Virus record (IMG/VR): IMGVR_UViG_3300016474_000241
Span: 1-37,447 of that record
Length of the DNA: 37,447 bases
Reading direction: 5' to 3' (one strand)
From: a virus
Lineage: Duplodnaviria; Caudoviricetes
Position 1 is the stretch's first letter; every line of letters starts with the position of its first letter. The notes under the pieces are model-generated. The model did no database searches. It had not been told where the DNA came from and worked only from the letters and a program-made list of their open reading frames with translations. Positions 6,049 through 31,049 of this stretch are shown here, piece after piece. The translations under genes were made by a program, and so were the position numbers.

Positions 6049-6092
6049 ACAAAAATGATTCCTCAACCCACGACACGCCACTGGAGATTTAC

Positions 6093-6272
6093 ATGGAACT
6101 GACGATTCAACTGGAGCTGAACGAAGTCAACGCGGTGCTGGATGCGATCGGGGCACTCCCGACGAGCACAAACACTTGGCCGATCGCGGCCAAGATCCGC
6201 GCACAGGCTGCCGCTCAGCTCCCGCAACAGCAGGAGCAGCAAGATGGCGGGCAGGGAAGTACAGCTGACTGA
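6093..6272 (+). CDS. Small hypothetical protein (59 aa, not in ORF track)
   Basis: GGAG RBS, then MELTIQLELNEVNAVLDAIGALP...; read by hand. Confidence 0.65.
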   Translation: MELTIQLELNEVNAVLDAIGALPTSTNTWPIAAKIRAQAAAQLPQQQEQQDGGQGSTAD

Positions 6273-6432
6273 CGAGCAGATCGAGGCGATCGCGGAGCGA
6301 GCTGCCGAGGTTGCCTTTGAGAAGATCTACAAGGAGGTCGGCAAGACCGTCCTGACCAGGCTCGCATGGATGGCCGGCGCTGCAGTCGTCGGTTTCTTCA
6401 TGTGGGTGGGCACCGGGCACACGCCCAAGTGA
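6244..6432 (+). CDS. Small membrane protein, lysis region
   Basis: AGGAG RBS, ATG at 6244 (MAGREVQLTDEQIEAIAERAAE...), one C-terminal TM segment. Confidence 0.65.
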   Translation: MAGREVQLTDEQIEAIAERAAEVAFEKIYKEVGKTVLTRLAWMAGAAVVGFFMWVGTGHTPK

Positions 6433-6439
6433 GCCTGAC

Positions 6440-6904
6440 GTGATTGCCGAGCTGGCCGCCGCCAACGCCGCGTTCGCGGTTATCAAGCACGCTGTCGCCA
6501 ACGCTGGCGACATCATGGCCGCCGGCCAAAAGCTGTTCGACTACTTCGACGCCAAGGCTGCCATTCAGCGCAAGGTCAACGAGCGCGCACAGGGCAAAGG
6601 CAGCACCGAGGGCTCGAGCGACTGGGAAGAGTTCCAGGCCCTCGAGCAGCTCAGGGCGCAGGAAGAGCACCTGCGCGAATCCATGATCTACGCCGGCCGC
6701 CCAGGCCTCTGGGACGACTGGCTCAAATTCCAGGCCGAGGCTGCGCGCAGGCGCAAGGCAGCCGTCGAGGCCGAGATTAAACGCAAGAAGGCGGTGCGCG
6801 ACCGCATCGAGCAGGCGTTCTGGTGGGGCGCGCTGGTCGTCACGCTGAGCTGCGCGGCCGCTTTCTTTGCCGTGCTGTCTTCGATGTTCAAAGGAAGGGG
6901 CTGA
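6440..6904 (+). CDS. Hypothetical membrane-anchored protein, lysis region
   Basis: 154 aa, GTG start, coiled-coil plus C-terminal TM helix. Confidence 0.65.
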   Translation: MIAELAAANAAFAVIKHAVANAGDIMAAGQKLFDYFDAKAAIQRKVNERAQGKGSTEGSSDWEEFQALEQLRAQEEHLRESMIYAGRPGLWDDWLKFQAEAARRRKAAVEAEIKRKKAVRDRIEQAFWWGALVVTLSCAAAFFAVLSSMFKGRG

Positions 6905-6906
6905 TC

Positions 6907-7410
6907 ATGCTGTCGTTGTTGTCCACCCTCGGAGGCCTGCTGATCAGCGGGCTGCCCAAGCTCCTGGAGTATTTCCAGGCCCGCGCTGACCACAAGCATG
7001 AGCAGGAGCTGGCGCGCATCCAGACCCAGCACGACCTCGAGATGGCCGCCAAGGGCTTTGCCTCGCAGCAACGCATCGAGGAGATCAAGTTCGACCAGCT
7101 GGCGCTGCAGACCGACGCGCAGATGACCACGGCCGCCCTTGATCACGACAAAGCCGTGCTGGCCAAGGCCTCGCGGTGGGTGGCCAACTACGTCGGCACC
7201 GTGCGCCCCACGGTGACCTACATCTTTGTGTTTGAGCTGGTGTCGATCAACGCCTTCCTCTGCTACTACCTCTGGACCCACCCCGGCCTGGTGACCGGGA
7301 TCGAGGACGTGCTGCGGTACTCGGACATCATCTTCAGCACCGACGAGATGGCCATGCTGGGCGGCATCATCGGCTTCTGGTTCGGCAGCCGGGGCTGGAG
7401 CAAGAAGTGA
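6907..7410 (+). CDS. Holin (3-TM type, putative)
   Basis: N-terminal amphipathic helix, VRP.VTY TM segment, C-terminal IIGFWFGSR; directly upstream of the lysozyme. Confidence 0.7.
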   Translation: MLSLLSTLGGLLISGLPKLLEYFQARADHKHEQELARIQTQHDLEMAAKGFASQQRIEEIKFDQLALQTDAQMTTAALDHDKAVLAKASRWVANYVGTVRPTVTYIFVFELVSINAFLCYYLWTHPGLVTGIEDVLRYSDIIFSTDEMAMLGGIIGFWFGSRGWSKK

Positions 7411-7937
7411 AGCTGTCGGATCAGGGCGCGGCCCTGATGCACAGGTTTGAGGGCTGCCGGGACCGCCCCTACCTGTGCCCAGCCCATATGTGGACCATCG
7501 GCTACGGCCACGTCCTGTACCAAGACCAGCTGCGGCTGCCGATGGCCAGGACGCCCGAGACGCGGACAATCCCGATGATCCGCAAAGAGTACCCGCTGCG
7601 GCCCGAGCACTTCCGCATCTGGAGCAAGGAGGAGATTGATGCGCTATTCCAGGCTGATGTCGCTTCTTTTGAGCGCGGTGTTCTACGACTTGCTCCCGGC
7701 CTGGCTGGCCATCAAGGCGCTTTTGACGCTTGCGTCTCTTTCGCGTTTAATGCCGGGCTAGGCAACTTCCAGCGCTCCCAGATCCGCATGAAGGTGAACC
7801 GGGGCGACTGGCAGGGCGCGGCCGATGCGCTCATGCAATGGACCAAGGGCGGTGGCAGGGTGCTGCCCGGCCTGGTGGCCAGGCGCAAGGCAGAGCGCCA
7901 GCTTTTCTTGTCAAGCGCTCAAGAAACTGTGCCATAA
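7407..7937 (+). CDS. Endolysin, GH24 phage lysozyme
   Basis: FEG..PYLCPA..WTIGYGH (E-8x-C-5x-T triad), FDA.VSFAFN.G, W.K.GG..LPGL..RR..E..LF. Confidence 0.92.
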   Translation: MKLSDQGAALMHRFEGCRDRPYLCPAHMWTIGYGHVLYQDQLRLPMARTPETRTIPMIRKEYPLRPEHFRIWSKEEIDALFQADVASFERGVLRLAPGLAGHQGAFDACVSFAFNAGLGNFQRSQIRMKVNRGDWQGAADALMQWTKGGGRVLPGLVARRKAERQLFLSSAQETVP

Positions 7938-8106
7938 ATGTGCCGCGCACCGTGACGATTGCAGTTGCCATTGCAAACCTTGGCCCGTTAATTCGGGCCT
8001 TTTTTGTATCCTTTAGGATTGTGATTCTGGTGAGTTTTTCTCCTAAGCCCTTGTCGCTGTTGAGTTTTTGTAGACGTAGAATCGGATTTGTGCCATTTTT
8101 GTGCCA
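7928..8106. other. attP site: arm-type repeats flanking a tRNA-His anticodon-loop core
   Basis: Tandem TGTGCC(A/G) pairs with 11-bp period at 7928/7939 and 8089/8100; central GGATTGTGATTC (8016-8027) identical to the tRNA-His anticodon region; lies near the 3' end of int. Confidence 0.75.
7982..8005 (+). terminator. Intrinsic terminator after the lysis cassette
   Basis: GGCCCG-TTAATT-CGGGCC followed by T6. Confidence 0.8.
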
Positions 8107-8123
8107 CAAACAAGGTTTTCAGT

Positions 8124-8200
8124 GGTGGCTGTAGCTCAGTTGGTAGAGCCCTGGATTGTGATTCCAGCCGTCGTGGGTTCGAGTCCCATCAGCCACCCCA
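8124..8200 (+). tRNA. tRNA-His (GUG), complete, with G-1 and encoded CCA
   Basis: GGTGGCTG..CAGCCAC-C-CCA acceptor stem with the G-1:C73 His identity element; anticodon arm CTGGA-TTGTGAT-TCCAG; T-loop TTCGAGT; 77 nt. Confidence 0.97.
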
Positions 8201-8204
8201 TTTT

Positions 8205-9161
8205 TCACAGCCCGACCCTCTCCGCAGCCGCGGCCAGGTGCTCGGGCGAGAGGTGGGCGTAACGCTGCACCATCTCATGCGAGTGCCACCCCCCCAGCTC
8301 CTGCAGCACTGATAACGGCGTTCCGGCCATCGCGTGCCAGCTTGCCCAGGTGTGACGCAGGTCGTGAAACCTAAATCCAGGCACTCCAGCGCGCTTGCAG
8401 GCCGCCTCCCAGGTGTTGGCCCACACCCGCGTCATTTCGCCCCATACGCGCCCTGTGCGGGGCTCTGGCAAAGATGCCAGCAGCTCCCTGGCTTGCCTGT
8501 TCAGGGGCACCACAATGCGATGCCCAGCCTTAGCCTCGTCGGCCTCCACAACCGCCACGCCGCGCTCTAGGTCTACCTTCTCCCAGGTCAGGCCAAAAAC
8601 ATTCGATCTTCTCAACCCGGTGAGCAAAGCAAAACGGACTGGCATCCGATACTTTTCCGGGAGACAAGCAATCAAAACTTCAGCTTGTTCGCGTGTCAGA
8701 AATGCGACGCGGCGCTTGGGTTCTGCCTCGGACTTGAGGACGGGTGCGCGGTCCAGCCAGTCCCAGTCGCGCTCGGCAGAGCGCAACATAGCCCGCACCA
8801 GGGCGCGATAACGGTTCCTGGTGCTCCCGGTCACGTCCTGAGGCAACGCCTCCTCGATGTCGTCGCGGGTGATGTCAGCAAGCTGCTTGGCTCCCAGCTT
8901 GGGCAGGAAATAGTTGATCTTGTCCTGATCCTCGCTGATTGACTTCTTGTGGCCGCGCTCTGTGAGCCAGCGCGCACAGGCATCCTTAAAGGTCTTCTTG
9001 GGGCGAGCCTTGAGAACCTTGCCTTGCCACAGCTCGGCCCTGCGAATGTCGTACAGGTTCTGCGCTTGCTTTTTGTCGTTGGTCTTGAGTGATTCCCGGA
9101 TGCGAACGCCATTGATTTGAACGTCCATCCAGTACACGTCGCCGCGAAGTTTGATAGCCAT
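8205..9161 (-). CDS. int: Tyrosine integrase (P22 Int-like)
   Basis: TGLRRSN, K(AG), FHDLRHTWASW, LGGW, MVQRYAHL catalytic motifs; N-terminal arm-binding-type domain; AAGGA RBS. Confidence 0.95.
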   Translation of the reverse strand: MAIKLRGDVYWMDVQINGVRIRESLKTNDKKQAQNLYDIRRAELWQGKVLKARPKKTFKDACARWLTERGHKKSISEDQDKINYFLPKLGAKQLADITRDDIEEALPQDVTGSTRNRYRALVRAMLRSAERDWDWLDRAPVLKSEAEPKRRVAFLTREQAEVLIACLPEKYRMPVRFALLTGLRRSNVFGLTWEKVDLERGVAVVEADEAKAGHRIVVPLNRQARELLASLPEPRTGRVWGEMTRVWANTWEAACKRAGVPGFRFHDLRHTWASWHAMAGTPLSVLQELGGWHSHEMVQRYAHLSPEHLAAAAERVGL

Positions 9162-9185
9162 GTCGTGGGTTCCTTCAGTTGTTAT

Positions 9186-9220
9186 GGTGAGATTCTCGCA
9201 ACTTGCTGCAGTATTGTCAA
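9186..9220 (-). promoter_or_regulatory. int promoter with overlapping 17-bp operator
   Basis: Minus strand TTGACA-17 bp-GAGAAT with extended TG; operator GGTGAGATTCTCGCAAC (9186-9202) covers the -10. Confidence 0.7.
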
Positions 9221-9228
9221 CTACCAGA

Positions 9229-10572
9229 TTAAATTGACACAGCAGCGTCTATCCGGGCTCCAATCCAGCGCACCACAGGTACAGCCCATGAGTTGCCCAG
9301 CGCCTTGTAGCGCGGGCCGTCCGGGCACTCGCTGGCGGGCTTCTTGCGCCAAGGGATGGCGGTGTAGTTGTCTGGGAAGCCTTGCAAGCGCTCGCACTCC
9401 ACGGGTGTGAGGCGGCGCACGGACATCGTGGGCGGTTGCATTGCCATCTGATGTTCAGGAATTCGCCCAGCCCGCAGCGTGCCAGCGGTGTCGTACTGCT
9501 GAACGCCAAATTCGCTGTCTTGAAAGATGCCGATTGGCTGCGCCACCCCTTGAGTGGCGTGTGTGTCCACGGTGTAGCTGGTGCCGTCATCGTTCCAGCC
9601 TTTGCCGTTCTGCGCCTTCTCTCTGGGCGTGACATCCTGCAAGGCGATTGGATGCGCCGCAAACAGACTGCCATTAGTCGCACTGGCGTTGCCGTTCCAC
9701 TTCGTGCCGTAGGCGGCGGTTAGGCAGTCTGCGGTCTGCTGGAAGGCGATGGGCGCTTCATGGTTACAAGTCAATGTTGGGCCACGGTCAAAGCCGATTT
9801 CTGCCCCGCCTTGGCCGTGAGCCATGGTTATGATGGCTTCGCACTCGACTCGCTCGTTGCCTGTGCGACTGAACGGAGGGCCGTTTGTAACGCAGGGGGC
9901 AACTCTTTCCCCCGCTTCTCGGCTCGGCGCAGAATCCCGGCGCACGCCGTCGAACTCAAAAAGAACCGAGGCGGGATCGAAGTCGTTTCGAGCACTTGCG
10001 ACAACGAACACACGGCGGCGTCGTTGGGCCACTCCGAAATATTGGGCGTCGAGGATGCGCCACGCGACTGTTCTCTGGGGACCATACACACAACCAGCGT
10101 TCGGCCATTTGCCCCTTGGCGGTTCCACTGCACCATCTTCACCGGCAAGGCCTGCCAGAAAGCATCCGAAGGCGTTGTCTTTGGTGCTGAGCACTCCGGG
10201 GACGTTTTCCCAGAAGATGATGCTGGGAACAAGTCCAGCGTGAAGGCGTCGTGTGTCGATTGCATTGGCGATCTCGCAGAAAACTAAGGACAGGTTGCCG
10301 CGAGAATCGTCCAGTGACTTCCTCAGGCCGGCTACGGAAAATGCTTGGCACGGTGTGCCACCGCAGAACAGGTCTGGAGCCTCGACCTCACCGCTGGCGA
10401 TGCGGTCTGGCAGTAGTGTCATGTCTCCAAGGTTTGGGACATCAGGGTAGTGGTGCTTGAGCACAGCAGAAGGGAAGGGCTCGATCTCGGAAAGCCACGC
10501 AGCCTTCCAGCCCCAAAGCCCCCACGCGACCGATGCGGCCTCGATGCCAGAGCAGACAGAACCGAACTTCAT
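9229..10572 (-). CDS. DNA cytosine-5 methyltransferase
   Basis: Motifs I (CSGIEA), IV (GGTPCQAFS), VI (ENV), VIII (QRRRRVF), IX (RRLTPVECERLQGFP) and X (YKALGNS). Confidence 0.95.
   Translation of the reverse strand: MKFGSVCSGIEAASVAWGLWGWKAAWLSEIEPFPSAVLKHHYPDVPNLGDMTLLPDRIASGEVEAPDLFCGGTPCQAFSVAGLRKSLDDSRGNLSLVFCEIANAIDTRRLHAGLVPSIIFWENVPGVLSTKDNAFGCFLAGLAGEDGAVEPPRGKWPNAGCVYGPQRTVAWRILDAQYFGVAQRRRRVFVVASARNDFDPASVLFEFDGVRRDSAPSREAGERVAPCVTNGPPFSRTGNERVECEAIITMAHGQGGAEIGFDRGPTLTCNHEAPIAFQQTADCLTAAYGTKWNGNASATNGSLFAAHPIALQDVTPREKAQNGKGWNDDGTSYTVDTHATQGVAQPIGIFQDSEFGVQQYDTAGTLRAGRIPEHQMAMQPPTMSVRRLTPVECERLQGFPDNYTAIPWRKKPASECPDGPRYKALGNSWAVPVVRWIGARIDAAVSI
9828..10265 (-). CDS. Nested alternative-frame ORF, M.EcoHK31I beta-subunit-like
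   Basis: EWPN..VCSLSQVLET..FFLS..GILRRAEKRGKELP resembles, from memory, the overlapping beta polypeptide of M.EcoHK31I-type C5 MTases. Confidence 0.6.
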   Translation of the reverse strand: MQSTHDAFTLDLFPASSSGKTSPECSAPKTTPSDAFWQALPVKMVQWNRQGANGRTLVVCMVPREQSRGASSTPNISEWPNDAAVCSLSQVLETTSIPPRFFLSSTACAGILRRAEKRGKELPPALQTALRSVAQATSESSAKPS

Positions 10573-11045
10573 ACACCGAGCCCCCAGCAGGCGATCAGGC
10601 AGGCCTCGGCTTTGCCATCATCCTTCACGCGCTTGAACTCGCCCGCGTGCGCCGGCCAGATCTGGGCGGCCTTGGCGCGGGCCGCGTCCTTGCCGCCGTT
10701 GAGCTTCATGTCCTTCTTCCACTTGGCGGGGGTCACCGTCTGAGTGGGGATGGCCAGGCCACCCAAGACGCCCAGCACGATGCCGAAGGCTTGGCCGAAG
10801 GCGAACATGGAGCTCACCCCTTGACCAGGCATTGCGCCCACCTGCTCGACGTAGGCGACGGCGCCCTGGTCGGCATACAGTCGCAGCTCTGCGGCCAGCA
10901 TTTCGGGGCTCACGCGGCGCTTGGCCTTGCCCCCACTGATCACCTCCACGCTGGGCATGTCGAACACATGCACCAGCTTGCCGTTGTCCTCGAGGATGGC
11001 GATCGCGCCCGATGCGCCGGGATCGACGCCGATGATGAATTTCAT
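10569..11045 (-). CDS. RuvC-like Holliday junction resolvase
   Basis: IIGVDPG, YVEQV, VTPAKWKK, DDGKAEA acidic catalytic pattern. Confidence 0.85.
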   Translation of the reverse strand: MKFIIGVDPGASGAIAILEDNGKLVHVFDMPSVEVISGGKAKRRVSPEMLAAELRLYADQGAVAYVEQVGAMPGQGVSSMFAFGQAFGIVLGVLGGLAIPTQTVTPAKWKKDMKLNGGKDAARAKAAQIWPAHAGEFKRVKDDGKAEACLIACWGLGV

Positions 11046-11437
11046 TCCTGCTCTTCTTTCTTTCTGAGGGCCCGCAGCTGGCTGCGTGACAGGCCTAGGT
11101 TGAACACACTGTTGGCCCGCAGCTTGAGCTGCGACCGCGCCCAGTAGCGGCGCTTGATTTCCTTCTGGTCAGAGATGGGCTTGGGTGCATCCTTCCCTGA
11201 CCCGATCGCATAGAGGGCCCGCGGGTAGGTTCGCTCGCCCTCCATGTCGTAGACGTACTCCTTGACGTAGATGCGCTTGCCCGATACAGGCGTGCGCTTG
11301 TTAAGTCGTGACACGACAGACACGACTTCATCTTTAGGACGGCCCAAGCGCTTGCAAATCTCTGATCGCGTCATGGGGCCTTCCTCTTCGAGCATTCGTA
11401 GGATCTCCCGCACAATGCCCCCTCGCTTGGTCGTCAT
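11042..11437 (-). CDS. Winged-HTH DNA-binding protein
   Basis: ILRMLEEEGPMTRSEICKRLG..V..VVSRL; start at 11437 coupled (ATGA) to the upstream stop. Confidence 0.65.
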   Translation of the reverse strand: MTTKRGGIVREILRMLEEEGPMTRSEICKRLGRPKDEVVSVVSRLNKRTPVSGKRIYVKEYVYDMEGERTYPRALYAIGSGKDAPKPISDQKEIKRRYWARSQLKLRANSVFNLGLSRSQLRALRKKEEQE

Positions 11438-11613
11438 TTTTTCCTCGCCACTGCTCGCCTGGTCCAGCACACGGCGCAGATCCAGCGCCCGTTGCCCATG
11501 TCCATGCCGCCCTCTGGCGGCTTCTTGGTTTCGCACTTGTCGCACGTCTTGAAGCGGTGCGCGGGCTGCGCCACGTTGCCCTTGAGGTCGATGCTTTGCT
11601 TGACGAAACTCAC
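11434..11613 (-). CDS. Small zinc-finger protein
   Basis: CDKC...WICAVC; GTG start overlaps the upstream TGA. Confidence 0.6.
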   Translation of the reverse strand: MSFVKQSIDLKGNVAQPAHRFKTCDKCETKKPPEGGMDMGNGRWICAVCWTRRAVARKK

Positions 11614-12925: not shown

Positions 12926-12941
12926 CGTTGTCTCAAAAGGT

Positions 12942-13023: not shown

Positions 13024-13028
13024 GTTGT

Positions 13029-13711: not shown

Positions 13712-13720
13712 CGTTTTTCC

Positions 13721-14780: not shown

Positions 14781-15163
14781 TCTTTGAACACCACCTTGAC
14801 GCCGGTCTTGGCCGGCGTGACCGTGACCGCCGGGGCGATCTGCCGCCAGGCATCGGGCGAGTGCTCGCGCAGCGCCTTGAGGATCGACTCGTCGGCCTTG
14901 ACCTCGGTCTTGATGGGCCGGGCCTCCTCGGGCCAGTTGGCCGTGAGCTCCTGCAGCTTGGCCACGTCGGCCTTGTAGGTCAGCTTGCCGGTCAGCGAGA
15001 TCTTCACGCCCATCGGCGTGGCGAACGTCTCCATGCCCTCCTCGCGTGCAGGATGGATCGCAAGGATCTGCTCCTCGATGGCCACGCGCTCGTCGCGTGC
15101 ATTTTCTTCCCTGCGTTTAGCGATGGCCCACTTGTTGGCCAAAATGTCGATTTGTTCCATCAT
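14777..15163 (-). CDS. Hypothetical protein (recombination module)
   Basis: 128 aa, N-terminal coiled coil, coupled within the operon. Confidence 0.7.
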   Translation of the reverse strand: MMEQIDILANKWAIAKRREENARDERVAIEEQILAIHPAREEGMETFATPMGVKISLTGKLTYKADVAKLQELTANWPEEARPIKTEVKADESILKALREHSPDAWRQIAPAVTVTPAKTGVKVVFKE

Positions 15164-15345
15164 TTTTTTCCCGTTGTTTTGGTGGTTGGAGGCAAACAGT
15201 CTTTTGGAAGATCGTCCGATCTCACAAATTCAAGGGTTGTGAAACGATGGTTGTTTGCGCACTCATAGCGGCGGCGTTTTGTGTGATCAGATCGAGTTCG
15301 TGTTTCCAAAACGTCAGCCCAGGCGTTGCATCGAGGACAATTCAT
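15160..15345 (-). CDS. NrdR-N-like zinc-ribbon protein
   Basis: MNCPRC...VLETR...RRRYEC...RFTTLE; ATG at 15345 coupled to the upstream stop. Confidence 0.7.
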   Translation of the reverse strand: MNCPRCNAWADVLETRTRSDHTKRRRYECANNHRFTTLEFVRSDDLPKDCLPPTTKTTGKK

Positions 15346-15524
15346 TGTGAAAGCCCCATCACCAAGCATGCGGCAAAACCAACGCCAATGAAAGCAGCCA
15401 GCGCATAGCCAGCCCATCGCTCCCAAGTCGGGATGCGGTAAGCCATCGGTCGCACAGAGGCGTAGCCGTAAGTGAAGGTGCAGTCCGCAAGCGTGCGGGG
15501 TGTGGTGATGTGGGAGGGTTTCAT
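15342..15524 (-). CDS. Small membrane protein
   Basis: AGGAG RBS, 60 aa, C-terminal TM. Confidence 0.65.
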   Translation of the reverse strand: MKPSHITTPRTLADCTFTYGYASVRPMAYRIPTWERWAGYALAAFIGVGFAACLVMGLSQ

Positions 15525-15538
15525 GTTGTGGGCTCCTG

Positions 15539-15733
15539 TCATTGTTTGAACTTGTATTGGTCGGGGGCGTACTCGTTCCAGATCTTGCCCTTGGGATCGA
15601 CCTGGGCGCGTAGCCCGAGGATCTTCTGGCTGACTGCTTTGCCGCGTGACCAGGCCGTGTGGTCGTCGCTGTAGTCGTAGAACCAGTCGTGGGTTGCGAG
15701 CAGTTCGCGGTAGAGCTGTTCTCCTAGGGTCAT
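15539..15733 (-). CDS. Hypothetical early protein (HDWxYxYSDD motif)
   Basis: GAGG RBS, ATG at 15733; first gene of the leftward operon. Confidence 0.7.
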   Translation of the reverse strand: MTLGEQLYRELLATHDWFYDYSDDHTAWSRGKAVSQKILGLRAQVDPKGKIWNEYAPDQYKFKQ

Positions 15734-16452: not shown

Positions 16453-16559
16453 ATGATGTCATATTCTCCCTGTTGAGTCAATCTCAATACCCGGATCGTA
16501 CAGGATATTAGAAATCTTTGCTCATTGCCGTAGATACATTAAGATGATGAAATCGCATC
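16453..16559. promoter_or_regulatory. Divergent PRM/PR switch region with two operators
   Basis: Minus strand TTGACT-17-CATCAT; plus strand TTGCTC-16-TAAGAT; operators GTTGAGTCAATCTCAAT (16472-16488) and GATGATGAAATCGCATC (16543-16559). Confidence 0.6.
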
Positions 16560-16578: not shown

Positions 16579-16821
16579 GTGACCATAGAAACCATCCACA
16601 CCCACGATCCGGCGTATACCGTCATAGAAAAATTGGGCGGTAAGAGTTTTGTTGCCGAGCAACTGAGTCTTGATAAATCAACGCTTTCCAGGTGGTGCCA
16701 GCCGAGGCCGATGGGGACGGGTGGAGTTATTCCGCAAAAGCACTGGGCGCGCTTGCTGGAGATGGCCGCAGAGCAGCGCGTGCGCCTGACGCTCAAGGAG
16801 CTGGCCGCGATCGAGGCTTGA
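16579..16821 (+). CDS. cro: Cro-like HTH protein
   Basis: VIEKLGG.SFVAEQL.LDKSTLSRW...GG.IP; divergent from cI. Confidence 0.75.
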   Translation: MTIETIHTHDPAYTVIEKLGGKSFVAEQLSLDKSTLSRWCQPRPMGTGGVIPQKHWARLLEMAAEQRVRLTLKELAAIEA

Positions 16822-22070: not shown

Positions 22071-22087
22071 TTTGAGAAAACCGCAAC
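22071..22087. promoter_or_regulatory. 17-bp operator abutting the ATG at 22088
   Basis: TTTGAGAAAACCGCAAC fits the TTGAG-N5-CGCAA family. Confidence 0.55.
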
Positions 22088-22366
22088 ATGACCCACGACA
22101 TCAACACCACCCTCAACGAGCGCGGCAAGCGTTACGGCACCTTCAAGGACCACGCCGAGATCAGCCAGCGCCTCAAGGGCGTGCTGCGCAAGTTTGAGGC
22201 TGAGCGAGGTTGCGACCTTGACCCCGACCAGAGAGAAGCTCTTGAGATGATGGCGCACAAGATTGCCCGCATCCTGAACGGCGACCCGAACTACGCCGAT
22301 AGCTGGCACGACATCGCCGGCTACGCCCAGCTGGTGGCCGACCGGCTCAACGGAGTGGCGCGTTGA
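22088..22366 (+). CDS. DUF6378-like protein
   Basis: LNERGKRYG..KIARILNGDP...DSWHDIAGYA. Confidence 0.8.
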   Translation: MTHDINTTLNERGKRYGTFKDHAEISQRLKGVLRKFEAERGCDLDPDQREALEMMAHKIARILNGDPNYADSWHDIAGYAQLVADRLNGVAR

Positions 22367-23703
22367 ACCTGGCCGAGTACCAGCCCAGGAGCGTTTTCCT
22401 CCCGCTCCACAACCGCGACAAGCGCTGGACCGTCGTCGTGGCGCACCGCCGCGCCGGCAAGACGGTGGCCATGTGCGCGGACCTGGTGATCGGCGCGCTC
22501 GAGACAGCGCTGCCCAAGCCGCAGTTCGCCTACCTGGCCCCGCAACGGGATCAAGCTAAACGAGTGGCCTGGTCCTACCTCAAAGACCTGAGCCGCCCCT
22601 ACTGGTCCAAGCCGCCCAACGAGTCCGAGCTGAAGATCACGATCAACAACGGCCACGGCGGCGAGAGCACCATCTACGTCGCGGGCGCGGACAACTACGA
22701 CGCGCTGCGCGGCATGTACTTCGACGGCGTGGTGCTGGACGAGACGGGTCAGATCAGACCGAGCGCCTGGTACACGGTGCTGCGCCCGGCGCTGTCTGAC
22801 CGTCGCGGCTGGGCCATCTTCGCCGGCACGCCCGCCGGCAAAAATATGTTCTGGAACCTCAGAGAAGAGGCCAGACTGAACCCGAGCACGCACCTGCTGC
22901 TCGAGCTGCCCGCGAGCAAGACCGGGATCATCCACCCCGACGAACTGCGCGACGCCAAGGTGCAGATGACCGATGAGGCGTTCCTGGTCGAATACGAGTG
23001 CTCATTCGACGCTGCGGTGCCTGGTGCGTACTACGCCAAGCTGGTGGGCGACGCCTACAACGAGGGCCGCGTGGGCAAACACCCTGTTGACCCCGCGTTC
23101 CCCGTCAACCTGGTGGCCGACCTGGGCTTTACCGACAGCTGCAGCTGGTGGGGCTGGCAGGAAACCCACGACGGCCTGCGCATCGTGGACTTCATGGAGG
23201 ACGACAACCAGCCGATCCAGCACTACATCGACTGGATCAAGTCCCGGCCGTACCTGGTCAACCCCAAAGGCATCTGGCTGCCGCACGACGCGAGGGCAAA
23301 AAGCCTGCAGACGGGCAAGTCGATCATCGAGCAGTTTCTGGCCAACGGGATCCGGCCCCAGCTGGTGCCCGAAATGTCGCTGCAGGACGGCATCGAGGCG
23401 GCCAGGCTGACGCTGCCGAGCTGCTACTTCGATGAGGAGGCCTGCTACGACGGCCTCGAGCACTTGCGCGCCTACATGCGCGAGTGGGACGAGAAAACGC
23501 AGACCTACCGCAACAAGCCCAAGCACGACCAACACAGCCACGGGGCTGACAGCTTCCGCTACCTGGCCCTCGCTGCGCGCCCTGTGTCGCGGAAATCGCA
23601 CCGCGCACCTACAATCACATCACTGCCCAGGAGCGCCAATTACGGTTTCGCTCTCAATGACATTTGGGACTGCCGACCAAGAGATTCGGGAAGGATCGGA
23701 TGA
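22363..23703 (+). CDS. terL: Terminase large subunit
   Basis: HRRAGKT Walker A, VVLDE Walker B, GTP coupling motif, ADLG and HGADSFRY nuclease motifs; TTG start with GGAG RBS. Confidence 0.93.
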   Translation: MNLAEYQPRSVFLPLHNRDKRWTVVVAHRRAGKTVAMCADLVIGALETALPKPQFAYLAPQRDQAKRVAWSYLKDLSRPYWSKPPNESELKITINNGHGGESTIYVAGADNYDALRGMYFDGVVLDETGQIRPSAWYTVLRPALSDRRGWAIFAGTPAGKNMFWNLREEARLNPSTHLLLELPASKTGIIHPDELRDAKVQMTDEAFLVEYECSFDAAVPGAYYAKLVGDAYNEGRVGKHPVDPAFPVNLVADLGFTDSCSWWGWQETHDGLRIVDFMEDDNQPIQHYIDWIKSRPYLVNPKGIWLPHDARAKSLQTGKSIIEQFLANGIRPQLVPEMSLQDGIEAARLTLPSCYFDEEACYDGLEHLRAYMREWDEKTQTYRNKPKHDQHSHGADSFRYLALAARPVSRKSHRAPTITSLPRSANYGFALNDIWDCRPRDSGRIG

Positions 23704-25646: not shown

Positions 25647-25654
25647 GGTGACAC

Positions 25655-26017
25655 ATGAAAAAGGCTGAAGAGTTTGTGAGCCTGGTCCTGCTGGACCGCG
25701 ACACCGCGCACCTCGCGCACTGGAAGACCAAGAGCTACGCCGAGCACAAGGCGCTCAACACCTTCTACGACGAGCTGCTCGAGCTCATCGACGGGTTTGT
25801 CGAGCAGTACCAGGGCTACTACGGCGGCCGCATGGCCATCGAGCGCGCAGACAACGGCAAGAGCGAAGACATCCGCGAGGCCCTCGAGGACCGCGTCGAG
25901 TGGATCGAGATGTACCGATACCAGATCTGCGATGAGGATGAGACATCGCTGCAGAACACGATCGACGAGATCATCAGGCTTTACCAGAGCACCCAGTACA
26001 TGCTGACGTTGGAGTGA
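25655..26017 (+). CDS. DUF5856 / Dps-ferritin-like four-helix protein
   Basis: HLAHW.TKSYAEHKAL..FYD.L..L.D.FVE.YQG. Confidence 0.75.
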   Translation: MKKAEEFVSLVLLDRDTAHLAHWKTKSYAEHKALNTFYDELLELIDGFVEQYQGYYGGRMAIERADNGKSEDIREALEDRVEWIEMYRYQICDEDETSLQNTIDEIIRLYQSTQYMLTLE

Positions 26018-26021
26018 CGAA

Positions 26022-27317
26022 ATGGACGCTCAGTCTTTGATCGACGCACTGCGAGCTCGAGCAAAAAAGTTCGTCTCACTTGACACGCCCGGCGACCAAG
26101 ACCTGGCCGATGTGGCCACCGACATTGGTGCCGGATTTGTTCCCGGCGTGGGCACGGCGCTAAGCGCCCGCGACTTTGAGCGCGCCCGGCGCGAAGGTGA
26201 TGCGCTCGGCATGGGTCTTTCCGCGATAGGCATGGTGCCCGTCCTGGGCGGCGTCACGCGAGGCGTGAGCAAGGCCGCAAAAGAGGGCATGACCGCCGCC
26301 GAGAAGGCCTGGATGACCCGCATGGAAAAGGTGGCCCGCAATAAAGGCGTGCAACACCGCGAGGCTTTGCGCGAAGGTGGCGAGACTATCGTGGACGATC
26401 TGCACACTTTTGCGCCTCGCACCATCATTTCCCCCGAGGAGCTGCTGGGCAAGGTCGGTGTGCAGGTGCAGGGCGATCGCAGCCGGGCCGCCGCGCTGAT
26501 TCGCCAGCTCCGCGGCGTCCCGCTTGAGGAGGGCGTGCGCCTGGAGGGCGGCCCCGCCTACGCGCAGCTCAACAAAGAGCTGGGCACTGGGGCCGGCTGG
26601 GCCAGCATGAAGGGCGCTGCAGCAGGCAAGCAGAAGCAATTTGAGCGCGCTGCCGACGCGACCGGCCGCGAGCCAATTGGCGTTTACAGCGCAATGGGCC
26701 TGGACGGCGTGGACTTTGCCACCCCCGTGGCCGAGTCAATGATCAAGGCGCTGCGACTGCACCGCCCGAACAAAGCGGCCATCGTCGCGGCCGACAAGGA
26801 AATTCGCCGCCTCGCTCCCGAGTTTGTGGGGCTGCAGTCGCAGGACGCGCTGGCGCAAGCGCTTGGCAGGGGCGGCTTCCCGATGGAGGGTGCTGGCCAG
26901 CTGCGCAAGGCGATTGCCAACACGCTGAAGAAGGCCGAGTACCAGAACCAGGGCTTCCCGGTCTACGACGACATCATCCAGGCCGTGACGCAGCCCCAAC
27001 TGATGGACGTGCCGATCGGCGCATCTGGGTTCACGATGTTCCGCGCCAAGCCTGGATCCCCGCTGATCACGGGCGCGGACGTGAAGATGCCTCACGGGTC
27101 ATACGACAGCGTGATCCCCGGTGAATACATCGGGGGTCTTGAGCGCTCGATCCCTGCCGAGGTGATGTACCCCAAGACCTACGAAAAGCACCGGGCGCTT
27201 GGCCGCAATCCTGCGCAAACGCACCGTTCCATGCAGGTCAACAACTCGGACTACGAGGTGTTCGATCAGCAGTGGCTGGACGGAGTCATGAATTACCTGC
27301 GCCGGGGCGGTCAATGA
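26022..27317 (+). CDS. Hypothetical protein with N-terminal pre-toxin TG-like helical hairpin
   Basis: GAGFVPGVGTALSARD...LSAIGMVPVLGG followed by a ~300-aa domain of unknown function. Confidence 0.7.
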   Translation: MDAQSLIDALRARAKKFVSLDTPGDQDLADVATDIGAGFVPGVGTALSARDFERARREGDALGMGLSAIGMVPVLGGVTRGVSKAAKEGMTAAEKAWMTRMEKVARNKGVQHREALREGGETIVDDLHTFAPRTIISPEELLGKVGVQVQGDRSRAAALIRQLRGVPLEEGVRLEGGPAYAQLNKELGTGAGWASMKGAAAGKQKQFERAADATGREPIGVYSAMGLDGVDFATPVAESMIKALRLHRPNKAAIVAADKEIRRLAPEFVGLQSQDALAQALGRGGFPMEGAGQLRKAIANTLKKAEYQNQGFPVYDDIIQAVTQPQLMDVPIGASGFTMFRAKPGSPLITGADVKMPHGSYDSVIPGEYIGGLERSIPAEVMYPKTYEKHRALGRNPAQTHRSMQVNNSDYEVFDQQWLDGVMNYLRRGGQ

Positions 27318-27474
27318 GCGCCTGCAGATTGGTGGCCAACGCTTCCATGCGCTCGCGCACGTCGTTGGCGATGTCCATCTGCACCGCCTGCGGCAGCGCT
27401 GAGAATGCGTCCGCGAACTTGCACACCGTCTCGGCGGTGTCGGGATCGTATTGGACCTGAATGACTGTTTTCAT
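27286..27474 (-). CDS. Small antisense-strand gene within the late region (62 aa)
   Basis: Strong GAGGTG RBS; extended -10 TGaTAAACT upstream; 3' end overlaps the 26022 gene. Confidence 0.6.
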   Translation of the reverse strand: MKTVIQVQYDPDTAETVCKFADAFSALPQAVQMDIANDVRERMEALATNLQALIDRPGAGNS

Positions 27475-27488
27475 TGGATCACCTCAAT

Positions 27489-27505
27489 ATTGAGTTTATC
27501 ACAAC
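27489..27505. promoter_or_regulatory. 17-bp operator between divergent genes, abutting the ATG at 27506
   Basis: ATTGAGTTTATCACAAC; contains the minus-strand -10 element. Confidence 0.6.
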
Positions 27506-27832
27506 ATGACCAGACGCAGATTCATCCAGCGGCGCGAGCCGCCCTACGACCTGATCGAGATCACCGACGACTACCAGCCCGAGGTGCGCGCTGATTCTGG
27601 CGCGCTCTGGGGCGATCGTTCCTACGACGGCATGCGCGCCCCTGATGGCACCGACATCAGCACGCGCACAAAGCACCGCGAGTACATGAAGGCCGCGGGC
27701 GTGACCACGATGGACGATTTCAAAGATACCTGGGCGAAAGCCAAGGTCGAGCGCGAGCGGTATTACACCGAAGGCGGCTCATTTAAGCGTGCCGACATAG
27801 AGCGCGCCATTTATCAACTCCAGAACAGGTAA
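27506..27832 (+). CDS. Conserved head-region hypothetical protein
   Basis: DGT.IS.R.KHREYMK..GV; precedes the scaffold gene. Confidence 0.7.
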   Translation: MTRRRFIQRREPPYDLIEITDDYQPEVRADSGALWGDRSYDGMRAPDGTDISTRTKHREYMKAAGVTTMDDFKDTWAKAKVERERYYTEGGSFKRADIERAIYQLQNR

Positions 27833-27835
27833 ACC

Positions 27836-28990
27836 ATGAGCGAACCCACGACAACGATGCGCGATGCCCTTGAGGCCGCGTTTAAAGAGGCCGAAGAATC
27901 ACCGAAGGCCTCGGACCCCACCCCCGAGCCTGCACCGGCCGCGATCGACACAGATCCTGCGCCAGCTGATGCGCCTGCGGGCGACACGCCTCAGGCTGCT
28001 GACCAGGATCTGAACGCCCTGGCTGAAGATCAGCCCAAGGGTGGCCAGCCCCGCGACGAGAGCGGAAAGTTCAAGGCCAAAGAGCCCGCTGAGCCGCCCG
28101 CGCAAGAGCTGCAAGATCAAGGTATGCAACCGGGTCCGAAATCGGGCCCAAAGAACCACCCCGACCGGGCCCCGCAGGCCTGGCGTCCTGAGGTGCGCGA
28201 GCACTGGGCCCAGCTGCCCGAGCCTGTGCGCGCCGAGATCGCCCGGCGCGAGTCTGAGCACGCCCGCTTCATCCAGGAAAGCAGCGAGGCGCGCAAAACC
28301 ACCGAGGCCCTGATGAAGACCATCGCCCCCTACGAGGCCTTCATCCGCGCTGAGAACTCAAACCCCATACAGGCCATCGACAACCTGATGAGCACGGCTG
28401 CGCGCCTTCGCACTGGCACCGCGCCCGAGCTCGCCCAAATGATGGCCGGCCTGGTCAACCAGTTTGGCACCGGCCGCTTTGGCAACGGGTTCATCGAGAT
28501 GCTCGACAGCGCGCTCGCCGGCCAGGCCCCAAAGCAAGACCCGCAGCAGGCGGCCATCGAGCAGGTGCTTAACCAGCGCCTCGCGCCCGTGCAGCAGATG
28601 CTGACCCAGTTCCAGCAGGCCCAGCTCGCCCAGCAGCAGCAGGTGGCCAGCTCCGCGCAAAACGAGGTGTCGGACTTTCTGAGCCGCGCCGAGTTTGGCG
28701 AGGACGTGCGCGAGGACATGGCCGACCTGATGGAGGCCGCCACGCGCCGCGGGCAAACCCTAAGCCTGGCCGATGCCTACAAAAAGGCCTGCCTGATGAA
28801 CGACAACGTGCGGTCGGTGATTGCCCAGCGCGTGCGCGCCCAGGGCGCTCAGCAGGGCACCCAGGCCGCGCAGAAGGCGCGATCGGCCGCGGTGCAGGTT
28901 TCTGGCGCTGCACCGATGGGCGCGCTCAAGCAAGACCCCACCGACGTGCGCTCCGCGATCGAGGCTGCCATTGCGGCGTCCTCACGGTGA
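27836..28990 (+). CDS. Scaffolding protein (putative)
   Basis: Acidic, Pro/Ala/Gln-rich; PRDESGKF and APQAW..E....W..LP motifs; directly upstream of the capsid gene. Confidence 0.75.
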   Translation: MSEPTTTMRDALEAAFKEAEESPKASDPTPEPAPAAIDTDPAPADAPAGDTPQAADQDLNALAEDQPKGGQPRDESGKFKAKEPAEPPAQELQDQGMQPGPKSGPKNHPDRAPQAWRPEVREHWAQLPEPVRAEIARRESEHARFIQESSEARKTTEALMKTIAPYEAFIRAENSNPIQAIDNLMSTAARLRTGTAPELAQMMAGLVNQFGTGRFGNGFIEMLDSALAGQAPKQDPQQAAIEQVLNQRLAPVQQMLTQFQQAQLAQQQQVASSAQNEVSDFLSRAEFGEDVREDMADLMEAATRRGQTLSLADAYKKACLMNDNVRSVIAQRVRAQGAQQGTQAAQKARSAAVQVSGAAPMGALKQDPTDVRSAIEAAIAASSR

Positions 28991-28999
28991 TTGCATAAT
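28971..28999 (+). promoter_or_regulatory. Sigma70-like promoter for the capsid gene
   Basis: TTGCGG-17 bp-CATAAT. Confidence 0.55.
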
Positions 29000-29170
29000 C
29001 ACACCACCGGGCAGCGCAATCTGCCCGTGGTGTGCCCAAGCACCCCAGCCACCGCATGATTCCTTAGGAGACGCATCGGCGTCCCACCTACGGCAAAGAC
29101 GGACTGAGATCGGTTCGCGTAGGCGCATCTGAAACCAGACCAGGCGCAAGCCTTTTTTGCACTCAGATGA
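29000..29170 (+). ncRNA. Structured leader of the major capsid gene
   Basis: Consecutive stems at 29000-29034, 29070-29083, 29087-29123 and 29126-29169; the last encloses AGGC-GCAA-GCCT+T-run and ends at the RBS. Confidence 0.5.
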
Positions 29171-29180
29171 AGGAGTCATC

Positions 29181-30152
29181 ATGTCTTTTCCAAACGTAAG
29201 CGATATCGTCGCAACGACGATTCAGTCGCGCACCCGTCAGATCGCTGACAACGTCACCAAGAACAACGCTCTGCTGAGCCGCCTGAACCAGCGCGGCAAC
29301 GTCAAGACCATCAGCGGCGGTAACGTGATCTTTGAAGAACTGTCTTTCGCTGAAAACGCGAACGGCGGCTTCTACTCTGGTTACGACCTGCTGCCCGTGG
29401 CCGCTCAGGACGTGATCAGCGCTGCCGAGTACCAGATCAAGCAGTACGCCGTCCCGGTCGTGATGTCTGGCCTCGAAATGCTGCAGAACAGCGGCAAAGA
29501 GCAGTTCATCGACCTGTTGGAAGGCCGTCTGAACGTGGCCGAGGCCACGATGGTCAACCAGCTGGCTCAGTCGATCTACTCCGACGGCACCGGCTCTGGC
29601 GGTAAGGAAGTCACCGGCCTGAACGCCGCTGTGCCCTCTGACCCGACCACCGGCACCTACGGCGGCATCAACCGCGCAACCTGGACCTTCTGGCGTTCCA
29701 AGCTGTACGACTTCAGCGCCCAGACCGTGACCCCCTCGGCCACGACCATCCAGGCCGGCCTGAACGCTCTGTGGGCTCAGCTGGTCCGCGGCACCGATCG
29801 TCCCGACCTCATCGTTCTGGACAACAACTACTGGTCGTACTACATGGGCAGCCTGCAAGCGCAACAGCGCTTCACCTCGCCCGAGACTGGCAACCTGGGC
29901 TTCCCCACACTGAAGTTCATGGACGCCGACGTGGTGCTCGACGGTGGTATCGGCGGCTACTGCCCGGCTAACACCGGCTTCATGCTCAACAGCAAGTACA
30001 TCAAGTGGCGTCCCCACAAGGATCGCAACATGGTGCCGCTGAGCCCGAACCGCCGCTACGCCATCAACCAGGACGCTGAAGTTCAGATCCTGGCCTGGGC
30101 CGGCAACCTGACTACCTCTGGTGCTCAGTTCCAGGGCCGCATCCAGAACTAA
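29181..30152 (+). CDS. Major capsid protein
   Basis: 323 aa, strong codon bias, AAGGAG RBS, follows the scaffold; IYSDGT...GL..., YGGI.R....W patterns. Confidence 0.88.
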   Translation: MSFPNVSDIVATTIQSRTRQIADNVTKNNALLSRLNQRGNVKTISGGNVIFEELSFAENANGGFYSGYDLLPVAAQDVISAAEYQIKQYAVPVVMSGLEMLQNSGKEQFIDLLEGRLNVAEATMVNQLAQSIYSDGTGSGGKEVTGLNAAVPSDPTTGTYGGINRATWTFWRSKLYDFSAQTVTPSATTIQAGLNALWAQLVRGTDRPDLIVLDNNYWSYYMGSLQAQQRFTSPETGNLGFPTLKFMDADVVLDGGIGGYCPANTGFMLNSKYIKWRPHKDRNMVPLSPNRRYAINQDAEVQILAWAGNLTTSGAQFQGRIQN

Positions 30153-30164
30153 GTTTTGGTGGCC

Positions 30165-30220
30165 TGTCGTGGGTCAACCTTTCCCGAGGGGGTGGTTGAC
30201 CCACTCCCCTCGGGTTTTTT
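30165..30220 (+). terminator. Terminator with overlapping antiterminator after the capsid gene
   Basis: Terminator stem 30183-30214 + T6; mutually exclusive 11-bp stem GTGGGTCAACC (30169-30179)/GGTTGACCCAC (30194-30204). Confidence 0.75.
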
Positions 30221-30234
30221 GAAGGAGAAATGAA

Positions 30235-30420
30235 ATGGCAGCAACCTATGGTGCAGCAGTGTCTGCAAACGCTCCCGCCGTCGTTGACACCAACGCCTCG
30301 CAAGGCACTGGTGCAGTCAGCGAAGGCATCGGCCTGATCGGCGCTGACGGCGTCAGCATCGGCGGCTCCCGCATCGGTGGCGACCCCGGCACCGACCTCA
30401 AGTTTGAAACCAACCAATAA
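30235..30420 (+). CDS. Small virion protein (putative)
   Basis: AAGGAG RBS, 61 aa, Gly/Ala-rich. Confidence 0.65.
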   Translation: MAATYGAAVSANAPAVVDTNASQGTGAVSEGIGLIGADGVSIGGSRIGGDPGTDLKFETNQ

Positions 30421-30431
30421 AGAGAAAAAAG

Positions 30432-31049
30432 ATGATGCAACCCACGACACCCACTATTTTTGAAGAGCCCAGCGACTGGGCCAAGCCTGACGAGACGCGC
30501 TTTGCCGCGGACAACAAGCTGTACGTCGAGTTTTTCCGCAAGCCCGTCCTGCAGCCTGGCAAGAGCCGCGACGCCGGCCGCGCCGTGTACGAGGAGGTGG
30601 ACTACGTCCGCATCCATGTGCCTGGCGACAAGTCCTCGGTGATCGAGCGACCTGTCTCGCAGATGGACATCTTCCGATTCCAGGACCGCTACAACAAGTG
30701 GAAGGCTGGCCAGGAAGAGGCCGTGACCGGCACACCGCTGACCGCTTTGCCGGGCATGACACCGTCCAAGGTCGAGGAATACAAGTTCTTCAAGCTGGTG
30801 ACTGTCGAGCAGCTCGCCGAGGCCAACGACAACTTGGGCGCAAAGTTCATGTCCTTCCAGCAGGACAAACAGCGCGCCAAGGCTTTCCTCGAGGTGGCGA
30901 AGAACAACGCTCCCATCGAGCGCATGAACGAAGAGCTTGCCAAGCGTGACGCTGAGCTCGAGGAGTTGCGTGCAATGGTCACGACCCTCCAAGCCAACGC
31001 CAAGAGCAGCAAGCGCGCAGTCGCGGCCACAGCCGAGACGGCCGAGTAA
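30432..31049 (+). CDS. Conserved hypothetical protein, head-tail region
   Basis: 205 aa; GTPL..LP...TVEQLA; C-terminal coiled coil. Confidence 0.75.
   Translation: MMQPTTPTIFEEPSDWAKPDETRFAADNKLYVEFFRKPVLQPGKSRDAGRAVYEEVDYVRIHVPGDKSSVIERPVSQMDIFRFQDRYNKWKAGQEEAVTGTPLTALPGMTPSKVEEYKFFKLVTVEQLAEANDNLGAKFMSFQQDKQRAKAFLEVAKNNAPIERMNEELAKRDAELEELRAMVTTLQANAKSSKRAVAATAETAE

Follow-up and report, generated by a model that had tools for sequence, protein, structure and literature searches.

The 3' untranslated region (UTR) of the major capsid gene of this phage carries a conserved seed hairpin and terminator which, judging from sequence comparison, probably (roughly 70%) act as a small RNA (sRNA), one that pairs in trans with several phage gene starts, where it is predicted to keep ribosomes from loading. 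A motif complementary to the seed recurs in the window (the whole 37,447-nt stretch of DNA analysed) and lies mainly at gene starts, the structure of the 3' UTR is conserved, and seed and motif co-vary across relatives. Because the seed and its gene-start complements change together, the mRNA of the capsid gene likely has a second role as a small RNA turning genes down.

The motif is enriched at gene starts

A preliminary description of this DNA reported nine exact copies of ACCCACGAC, all of which we recovered at the same coordinates and on the same strands. It expected less than one copy of the 9-mer at random, in agreement with a shuffle mean of 0.27, and none of 100 shuffles got to 9. Among 9-mers, ACCCACGAC ranks first under Markov orders 1–4 and second under order 5 (expected 1.14). 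Five copies are coding in our own list of coding sequences (CDSs). Enrichment also held against the codon-preserving nulls that had been proposed as a check, as shuffling codon order within CDSs gave a mean of 0.19 copies and reached 4 in 0 of 2000 trials, and synonymous resampling with the protein fixed reached 5 coding copies in 20 of 2000. The mean of the latter is already 1.76 coding copies, so amino acids account for part of them, and three do coincide with in-frame Thr-His-Asp, as previously claimed.

Start regions, defined by a simple ATG plus Shine-Dalgarno (SD) rule of our own, contain five of the seven sense copies (P ~1e-5, start regions being 5.5% of the sequence). These five lie in the ribosome-loading regions of gp6093, int, DUF6378, the putative scaffold and gp30432, span about -29 to codon 6, and have predicted opening energies of 0.3–1.5 kcal/mol, against a median of 5.4. 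The label of gene-start motif is therefore apt for these five and wrong for the copies at 15686 and 23164. The 13-bp identity between 6064-6076 and 30438-30450 was reproduced, as was the complementarity of 12 nt between 30165-30176 and 22089-22100. The sites discussed below are:

27844..27853, + strand: putative scaffold target, codons 3-6 of 27836-28990, the best co-varying site
30440..30449, + strand: gp30432 target, first codons of the gene
6066..6075, + strand: gp6093 target, non-coding, immediately 5' of the SD
9161..9170, - strand: integrase target, between the SD and ATG of int (8205-9161)
22089..22100, + strand: DUF6378 target, covering the start codon, 12-nt complement
15525..15533, - strand: degenerate site, SD-ATG spacer of the ORF starting at 15524
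16600..16608, + strand: near match in the first codons of a cro-like gene, a weak candidate
15686..15694, - strand: exact copy, codons 14-16 of the ORF starting at 15733
23164..23172, + strand: exact copy inside the terL coding sequence

A structured element follows the capsid gene

The single inverted copy behind the capsid gene belongs to the following arrangement:

28971..28999, + strand: predicted capsid promoter of the sigma70 type, sharing sequence with the stop codon of the scaffold gene, -10 at 28994-28999
29181..30152, + strand: major capsid gene (phrog_9953, E 3e-115)
30153..30220, + strand: capsid 3' UTR element, predicted regulatory RNA with AU-rich linker, seed hairpin and intrinsic terminator with U-tract
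30161..30175, + strand: seed hairpin P1, arms 30161-30165 and 30171-30175, loop 30166-30170
30165-30174, + strand: seed, within the P1 hairpin region
30169..30204, + strand: alternative helix A:C, predicted anti-terminator, A 30169-30179 with C 30194-30204
30183..30220, + strand: terminator stem B:D and U-tract, B 30183-30191, D 30206-30214, U-tract 30215-30220

P1 keeps at least 4 bp in 56 of 62 distinct elements, and its frequent G-U pairs indicate an RNA of the + strand. Double changes occur at 6 of the 8 pairs of terminator stem B:D. For A:C, 85.3% of cells are paired and 17 show a change in each partner, a result seen in none of 500 shuffles; the helix has at least 8 bp in 48 of the 62 elements, lacks this length in 14, and is predicted to mask the 3' part of the seed too. 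A full H-type pseudoknot of A:C with B:D was rejected, as the C-D linker is 1 nt in the window; because such a linker cannot span an 11-bp helix, we treat the two as alternatives, i.e. as mutually exclusive conserved helices of the kind found in attenuators. Location in a 3' UTR together with an intrinsic terminator and U-tract is what is expected of a 3' UTR-derived sRNA. A point against this reading is that, by secondary structure alone, the UTR RNA needs 8.2 kcal/mol for the full 9-mer to open, more than tRNA-His (6.3).

No Rfam covariance model matched over the element in a search of the window with E up to 5 or of 10 loci with E up to 1, and our covariance model R1 found no second copy in the window; R1 takes in capsid coding sequence, so its matches in distant loci are uninformative about the RNA. 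The predicted capsid promoter is conserved in relatives and carries a degenerate operator-like palindrome. Consensus scanning gave nothing resembling a promoter around the 3' end of the capsid gene, and such scans also missed both the capsid promoter and the capsid terminator. A search of RNA sequencing data matched 15 runs, none with half of the query words. Contigs from four RNA runs are relatives and cover the region, although contigs cannot show RNA ends or levels. Capsid patterns matched about 1200 stored stretches; the phages of the family are uncultured and temperate.

Seed and targets change together across relatives

On the capsid side, the 40 C-loop loci contain 74 sense copies of ACCCACGAC and none of ACCCACCAC, and the 31 G-loop loci contain 19 copies of ACCCACCAC and none of ACCCACGAC. 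The longest perfect complement between UTR and scaffold start is 8.7 nt for a locus's own pair, against 6.7 for mismatched pairs and 5.4 for random windows; it reaches at least 8 nt in 58 of 70 (permutation test, 0 of 100000). In all 42 distinct pairs of seed and scaffold start, the variable base of the loop is paired; the base preceding it is paired in 30 of 42 (16.9 when shuffled), and seedless loci keep the target core in 0 of 8 cases. On the tree, four seed changes and four target changes give four joint ones, at the same steps.

The same holds genome-wide, since each clade's top 8-mer at gene starts is the complement of its own seed. In 14 C genomes 54 of 105 copies of CCCACGAC fall in start regions (5.5% of sequence), where it is the top 8-mer and its antisense form numbers 2; in seven G genomes this is true of 14 of 31 copies of CCCACCAC. 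Compared with permutations of its letters, the motif ranks 1 of 168 (54 vs 7). Within clades, non-coding flanks agree better with their own seed (4.23 vs 3.63 of 8, p 0.0009; collapsed p 0.004), and compensation involving several bases is seen in a non-coding leader of G043 and in the spacer before int of G046. Letters that co-vary stand at third codon positions or outside coding sequence. These data strongly support that part of the earlier RNA-network idea which placed the regulator in the capsid 3' UTR.

A conserved seed complementary to distant initiation regions, with compensatory change, is thus present, although at the loop base this amounts to only 2 independent pairs on starred branches (sign test p 0.5). 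The independent switches may be as few as one, because the AU test fails to reject a single C-loop clade (p 0.055). Flank bases track loosely, s-1 having 9 and 11 changes and 17 joint. One clade, with a seed ending in GGCT, keeps the element and has matches in 0 of 207 start regions, and four 71-88% complete contigs of this clade gave 0 matches. Among six further genomes, G042 has 3 matches against 3 control matches, G044 has 1 in 68 starts and G045 0 in 43. G-form copies in C genomes also fall at starts in 6 of 38 cases.

Conservation differs between sites. The name scaffold for 27836-28990 is putative, being positional, with an atlas lead (PF09306) at 0.88 only. The gp30432 site is retained in 13 of 13 C-loop genomes and is replaced by the G form in G017. 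The copy at 6066 had been placed before the ribosome-binding site (RBS) of a lysis cassette; it does lie upstream of a gene, but this gene is gp6093 (6093-6272, 59 aa), first of a block whose end is the endolysin. Its 8-nt core is present in 12 of 12 homologues found, and it is compensated in an apparent G043 homologue. The int site is exact in 2 of 13 C-loop relatives, with one further wobble variant, and has the G form in G046; DUF6378 itself was found in only 1 of 20 relatives. Exact copies of the 15525-15533 site precede the homologous start in 3 of 10 homologues (G011, G012, G013). For the cro-like near match, the last 8 letters occur in 4 of 13 C-loop homologues and the G form in G017. 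The 15686-15694 copy, which falls on an HDW/FDW/QDW protein motif (exact 9-mer in 0 of 11 homologues, last 8 letters in 4), is probably a by-product of protein coding. The terL copy, kept in 0 of 18 homologues and predicted to be buried (opening energy 5.6 kcal/mol), is probably due to chance or coding.

Alternative explanations

The preliminary description had considered tRNA-His, or a fragment of it, as the antisense partner:

8125..8200, + strand: tRNA-His, adjoining the integrase 3' end, read as attP, sharing the 9-mer with the seed

Its matches of 11, 12 and 13 nt to the int, scaffold and terL copies are real, it shares nine nucleotides with the seed, and a host tRNA-His is present regardless of attP. 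Nevertheless, pairing of tRNA-His (phage or host) or a 3' fragment with the sites is very improbable. Relatives sharing this motif network have their integration sites at tRNA-Leu, -Ser or -Cys, attP differs among C-loop phages, and G-loop phage sites mismatch tRNA-His, including those of G046, which encodes a full tRNA-His and whose start-region motifs, the int site among them, match the capsid seed instead. Targets thus do not follow the tRNA sequence, as they would for a tRNA-fragment regulator. Moreover, the T-stem holds five of the nine bases, and the extra letters matched by tRNA-His are Glu codon letters common to the G clade. On attP variation and the G046 mismatch we rejected tRNA-His as regulator: it is read as the attP of a swappable integrase module, not as the co-varying partner. 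The motif was also rejected as an integrase core site, as attP varies and the motif does not, and relatives' partial tRNA copies begin at the anticodon loop rather than the T-arm.

Could ACCCAC[G/C]AC be an asymmetric protein site, bound either as DNA (like a stoperator) or as RNA (by a translational repressor), with a specificity that has drifted from clade to clade and with the post-capsid copy one more inverted site? The motif is oriented with transcription, like L5 stoperators in the accessible part of PMC9283540, several copies lie directly behind promoters, a change of protein specificity would likewise switch all sites at once, and the seed loop persists in the clade without targets. 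We consider this reading, the other arm of the preliminary description, quite unlikely, given that every lineage with the element has a single inverted copy in a + strand RNA hairpin loop, that flanks beyond the core follow their own seed, and that sites track start codons, mid-operon too. A separate palindromic family overlaps promoters (75 vs 6 control matches in 61 stretches), the phage repressor (15839-16420) is a CI-type HTH protein, with a zinc-finger protein encoded at 15160-15426, and the 21 genomes have 0-9 exact copies of either 9-mer form, against the more than 20 13-mer sites per genome of stoperators. Chance, combined with N-terminal Pro-Thr-Thr coding and C/A-rich leaders, can point to the coding copies expected with amino acids fixed and to the two unconserved window copies. 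It is hardly credible overall and largely refuted for the five start sites by the third-position and non-coding co-variation and the permutation rank.

The element might instead be an RNA-triggered attenuator, in which phage mRNAs whose start regions are free would bind the seed as it is transcribed, preventing A:C and forcing termination, thereby controlling the genes behind the capsid gene. Helix A:C co-varies, overlaps the seed and is predicted to be the first to fold during transcription, and the window's two folds differ by 4.7 kcal/mol. However, the elements without an A:C of at least 8 bp include deep-branching ones with seed-matching scaffold starts, and a single seed whose many partners are tied to start codons looks more like a regulator than a sensor. 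Attenuation is therefore unlikely, although it can coexist with the sRNA.

Proposed mechanism

For the preferred reading, a trans-acting sRNA, we propose that the promoter overlapping the stop codon of the scaffold gene would give capsid mRNA as a transcript of its own, expected to start near 29003-29006, which would put any pairing with the scaffold start in trans. After termination, RNAs left whole or cut back at the AU-rich linker to ~65 nt would present the 5-nt loop; from this loop a 9-14 bp duplex would nucleate as P1 opens. Pairing at -29 to codon 6 would repress initiation, as pairing at such positions does in bacteria according to the accessible part of PMC8383071. During lytic growth, transcription of the capsid gene would then turn down scaffold, gp30432, gp6093, integrase and some of the early genes. 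In most lineages, A:C would mask the seed in read-through RNA, coupling regulator output to termination.

A two-way hub is a more tentative possibility, in which the terminated capsid 3' end would repress a regulon spread over the whole genome and, through the same pairing, the anti-terminator would be blocked and the terminator locked. If so, the regulon would comprise scaffold, integrase, recombination and lysis-side genes, and one 9-nt seed would couple capsid output, scaffold-to-coat ratio and tail-gene read-through with no protein regulator.

Comparison with known systems

The element is likely a variant of the 3' UTR-derived sRNA idea with capsid mRNA as source. As far as the accessible parts of the cited papers describe them, OppZ and CarZ (PMC7398697) and CpxQ (PMC8383071) are likewise short RNAs at mRNA 3' ends which share the terminator and are predicted to pair with the start regions of genes that belong to the same pathway or operon; here, the source is a phage capsid mRNA, the many phage targets span early and late modules, and an alternative helix can mask the seed. 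GcvB (PMC3879156) and DapZ, the latter also in a 3' region (PMC8383071), use a multi-target G/U-rich seed against C/A-rich sequence beside the SD, whereas our element differs in sequence, has perfect 8-14 nt sites in phage genes, presents its seed in a hairpin loop and yielded no internal promoter by consensus scan.

Phage RNA loops that pair with their own ribosome-binding regions, with specificities that differ among relatives, are described for c4 RNA of P1/P7, sar, OOP and aQ in the accessible part of PMC12197685, with one or two neighbouring targets, unlike the structural-gene tail and its targets here; our element has no c4 Rfam match, and its loop-presented pairing with RBS regions is a prediction. 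CisR (PMC13250501), VpdS and PreS (PMC12197685; bioRxiv 10.1101/2024.10.31.621285) also control phage mRNAs or the lytic cycle, but CisR is host-encoded, PreS targets mainly host genes, and the accessible text describes a capsid 3' UTR source for none of them. Dispersed, asymmetric, transcription-oriented repeats are known as Cluster A stoperators (PMC9283540) and Cluster K start-associated sequences (SAS), the latter at start codons (PMC3203893). They are 13-mers in 11 to >20 copies, SAS include the SD, and the accessible parts of both papers describe no co-varying antisense partner. An extension to mycobacteriophage SAS was not supported, as Angelica's sole inverted copy is inside annotated gene 92; the parts of Pixie and TM4 examined have none, and no conserved antisense partner was found there.

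In 6 of the supplementary files of Fremin 2023 (PMC10690425), five strings had 0 matches. No paper on this capsid 3' UTR element was found in the mainly open-access literature searched.

Implications

Proteins are usually held responsible for the balance of scaffold to coat and for shutting down early functions, as in the autoregulation of the P22 scaffold. Here, in a widespread family, the structural mRNA's own tail appears to carry such control, and nature has supplied matched seed and target variants. For unexplained start-associated phage repeats, the finding suggests a search rule, namely to seek a single inverted copy in a structured UTR.

Motif copies at gene starts

The 9-mer motif occurs in nine exact copies in the window against 0.27 expected and ranks first among all 9-mers under Markov orders 1-4, which bears out the enrichment proposed in the preliminary description. 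Against a codon-preserving null the excess stood only in part: coding constraint accounts for some copies, since resampling that preserves the proteins gives an expected 1.76 coding copies and reaches the five found in 20 of 2000 trials. Seven of the nine copies are sense to their genes. The claim that these mark gene starts held for five, in the initiation regions of gp6093 (6066), int (9162), DUF6378 (22091), the putative scaffold gene (27844) and gp30432 (30440), and failed for those in terL and at 15686. The latter two were set aside, as none of 18 terL homologues keeps a copy and the other coincides with a conserved xDW protein motif.

Seed and start sites change together

The proposal that the capsid 3' UTR controls translation starts is supported by the seed, its complement of the motif, and the start sites changing together across relatives. 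Of 77 capsid loci whose ends were usable (the window and 76 others), 72 have a GT[C/G]GT-type loop 3' of the capsid stop codon, that of L035 being a false call in coding sequence. Although the loci within each set are related, the 40 with a C loop contain 74 sense copies of ACCCACGAC and none of ACCCACCAC, whereas the 31 with a G loop contain 19 of ACCCACCAC and none of ACCCACGAC. For the 70 loci that offered a UTR as well as a scaffold start (capsid identity <64%, scaffold starts out of reach and two miscalled starts having been excluded), the mean length of the longest perfect complement was 8.7 nt in own pairs, 6.7 nt in mismatched pairs and 5.4 nt in random windows. The loop base is complementary to the scaffold start in all 42 distinct pairs, by way of a synonymous Thr codon change on the target side, and neighbouring positions likewise pair above shuffles. 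The target core is kept in none of eight seedless loci and is unmatched in four of 62 seeded ones, three from one clade plus L177, where an 8-nt match was missed by the search pattern. On the capsid tree, seed, target and pair need four changes each; only two independent seed/target pairs fall on starred branches, too few for significance, and the tree test does not reject a single C-loop clade (p 0.055).

Across 14 C-loop genomes, including the window, 54 of 105 copies of CCCACGAC lie in start regions, which make up 5.5% of sequence; no other 8-mer is as common in these regions, and among 168 permutations it comes first. In seven G-loop genomes, 14 of 31 copies of CCCACCAC but none of three of CCCACGAC lie in start regions. 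A G-loop pattern retrieved a further 21 loci, of which seven had been seen before and one was no capsid locus; these yielded 14 versus 0 of 414 starts. Flanks beyond the 7-nt core fit their own seed better than same-clade seeds (p 0.0009 over 35 non-coding sites; p 0.004 over the 32 left once collapsed). In relative G043, whose seed differs, the leader of an apparent gp6093 homologue, judged from N-terminus and offset alone, has a 10-nt complement of the G043 seed at the offset that the 6066 copy has in the window.

Scaffold, gp30432 and gp6093 are stable targets across relatives; sites at int, Sak4 and leftward genes are gained and lost. In genomes G042, G044 and G045, seed-matching starts exceed controls slightly if at all. 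One clade (L283-L297 and G038-G041) retains seed hairpin, anti-terminator and terminator after the capsid gene, with no match among 207 starts in 16 loci, and in its four contigs (71-88% complete) only the seed itself was found, without complementary sites; the element may have targets in the host there or act in cis alone.

Structure of the capsid 3' UTR element

In the element a small hairpin, whose loop and 3' arm hold the seed, precedes a terminator with a U-tract. Over an alignment of 29 sequences, 90.3% of the cells in this fold are paired, with 48 double changes; for the alternative helix A:C the figures are 85.3% and 17. Neither result was equalled in 500 shuffles; the shuffles disregard relatedness, and the structures were picked from these very sequences. 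Among 62 distinct elements, 56 have the seed hairpin and 48 an A:C helix of at least 8 bp. Opening the whole 9-mer has a predicted cost of 8.2 kcal/mol, and binding would therefore have to begin at the 5-nt loop. Six capsid leaders (L040, L042, L044, L045, L046 and L048) carry a perfect seed complement about 1080 nt before the seed, which could be a variant internal stem or serve self-regulation.

Protein sites and tRNA-His

A stoperator-like reading, with the motif as a DNA site for a protein, is disfavoured: the motif tracks start codons, and its lone inverted copy occupies the loop of an RNA, a placement that a DNA site leaves unexplained. Promoters carry a distinct palindromic family, overlapping the -10 regions ahead of int, gp6093 and cI/cro, with eight matches at one mismatch against 1.0 expected and, across 61 stretches, 75 against 6 in the control.

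Operator-like sites and a candidate regulator in the window
6033-6046, 9188-9201, 16473-16486, 16544-16557, 22072-22085, 15781 and 27491-27504: palindromic operator-like sites, conserved in relatives
15160-15426 (-): zinc ribbon protein, Ogr/Delta-like or NrdR-like, leftward operon; barely above both Pfam cut-offs

The palindromes are likely CI/Cro repressor operators, including those at int and the head of the lysis block, and the zinc ribbon protein is a candidate transcription regulator. In phage Angelica the sole inverted SAS copy (L318:28635-28647) falls within gene 92 as annotated and overlaps in part a predicted hairpin loop situated behind a strong hairpin; the portions of Pixie and TM4 retrieved contain none.

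The tRNA-His suggested earlier as the pairing partner adjoins the integrase 3' end, and a host tRNA fragment may play a side role in C-loop phages. The motif stays while the attP tRNA varies: relatives sharing it have tRNA-Leu, -Ser, -Cys or -His pieces there (identified by anticodon), and G013, which has a Ser integration site, carries seven copies. G046, despite encoding a full tRNA-His, has the G form in the int spacer and at other starts, in agreement with its own capsid seed. The 9-mer common to tRNA-His and seed is best read as coincidence. Close relatives (L081-L120) exchange tRNA-His, -Leu, -Ser, -Cys and -Met integration sites 3' of the integrase; G003 and G014 each combine a complete tRNA-His with an additional 3' half.

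Proposed mode of action

The window spans an entire virus record of 37,447 bases, whose ends overlap by about 22 bases, and has the gene content of a temperate tailed phage (integrase, CI-like repressor, Sak4-like recombinase, terL, portal, capsid, endolysin). Among named capsids, BUCT555 (71%) and Mx8 (64%) have the closest; the best match among genome contigs (85%), in a MAG labelled Polaromonas, is a weak hint of a Burkholderiales host.

A ~180-nt structured capsid 5' leader (29003-29180, +), with invariant motifs, variable hairpins and a stem adjoining the Shine-Dalgarno, is conserved in 27 aligned sequences and differs in other lineages; it has no Rfam match and may gate capsid translation. 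Six loci (L010, L033, L063, L070, L208 and L215) have in its place, between scaffold and capsid, an extra reading frame that stops shortly ahead of the capsid start and by eye looks similar to an HNH endonuclease.

The conservation of a -10 element overlapping the scaffold stop codon makes it probable that the capsid gene has its own transcript, which stops at the terminator; its 3' UTR would then pair with the scaffold start in trans. An operator-like palindrome lies in the capsid promoter and takes the canonical form in G003 and G046; its presence suggests expression during lytic growth. For the five start sites the predicted opening cost is low (0.3-1.5 kcal/mol versus a median of 5.4), and their predicted duplexes with the seed segment come to -19 to -31 kcal/mol before opening costs.

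The element matches no Rfam family, and no description of it was found in the literature searched, which included six supplement files of PMC10690425. Its predicted mode of action is that of OppZ/CarZ (PMC7398697) and GcvB/DapZ (PMC3879156; PMC8383071), and like c4 it would aim a loop at the phage's own starts (PMC12197685). Base pairing anywhere between the RBS and codon five inhibits translation initiation (PMC8383071), which makes repression the likely sign of regulation.
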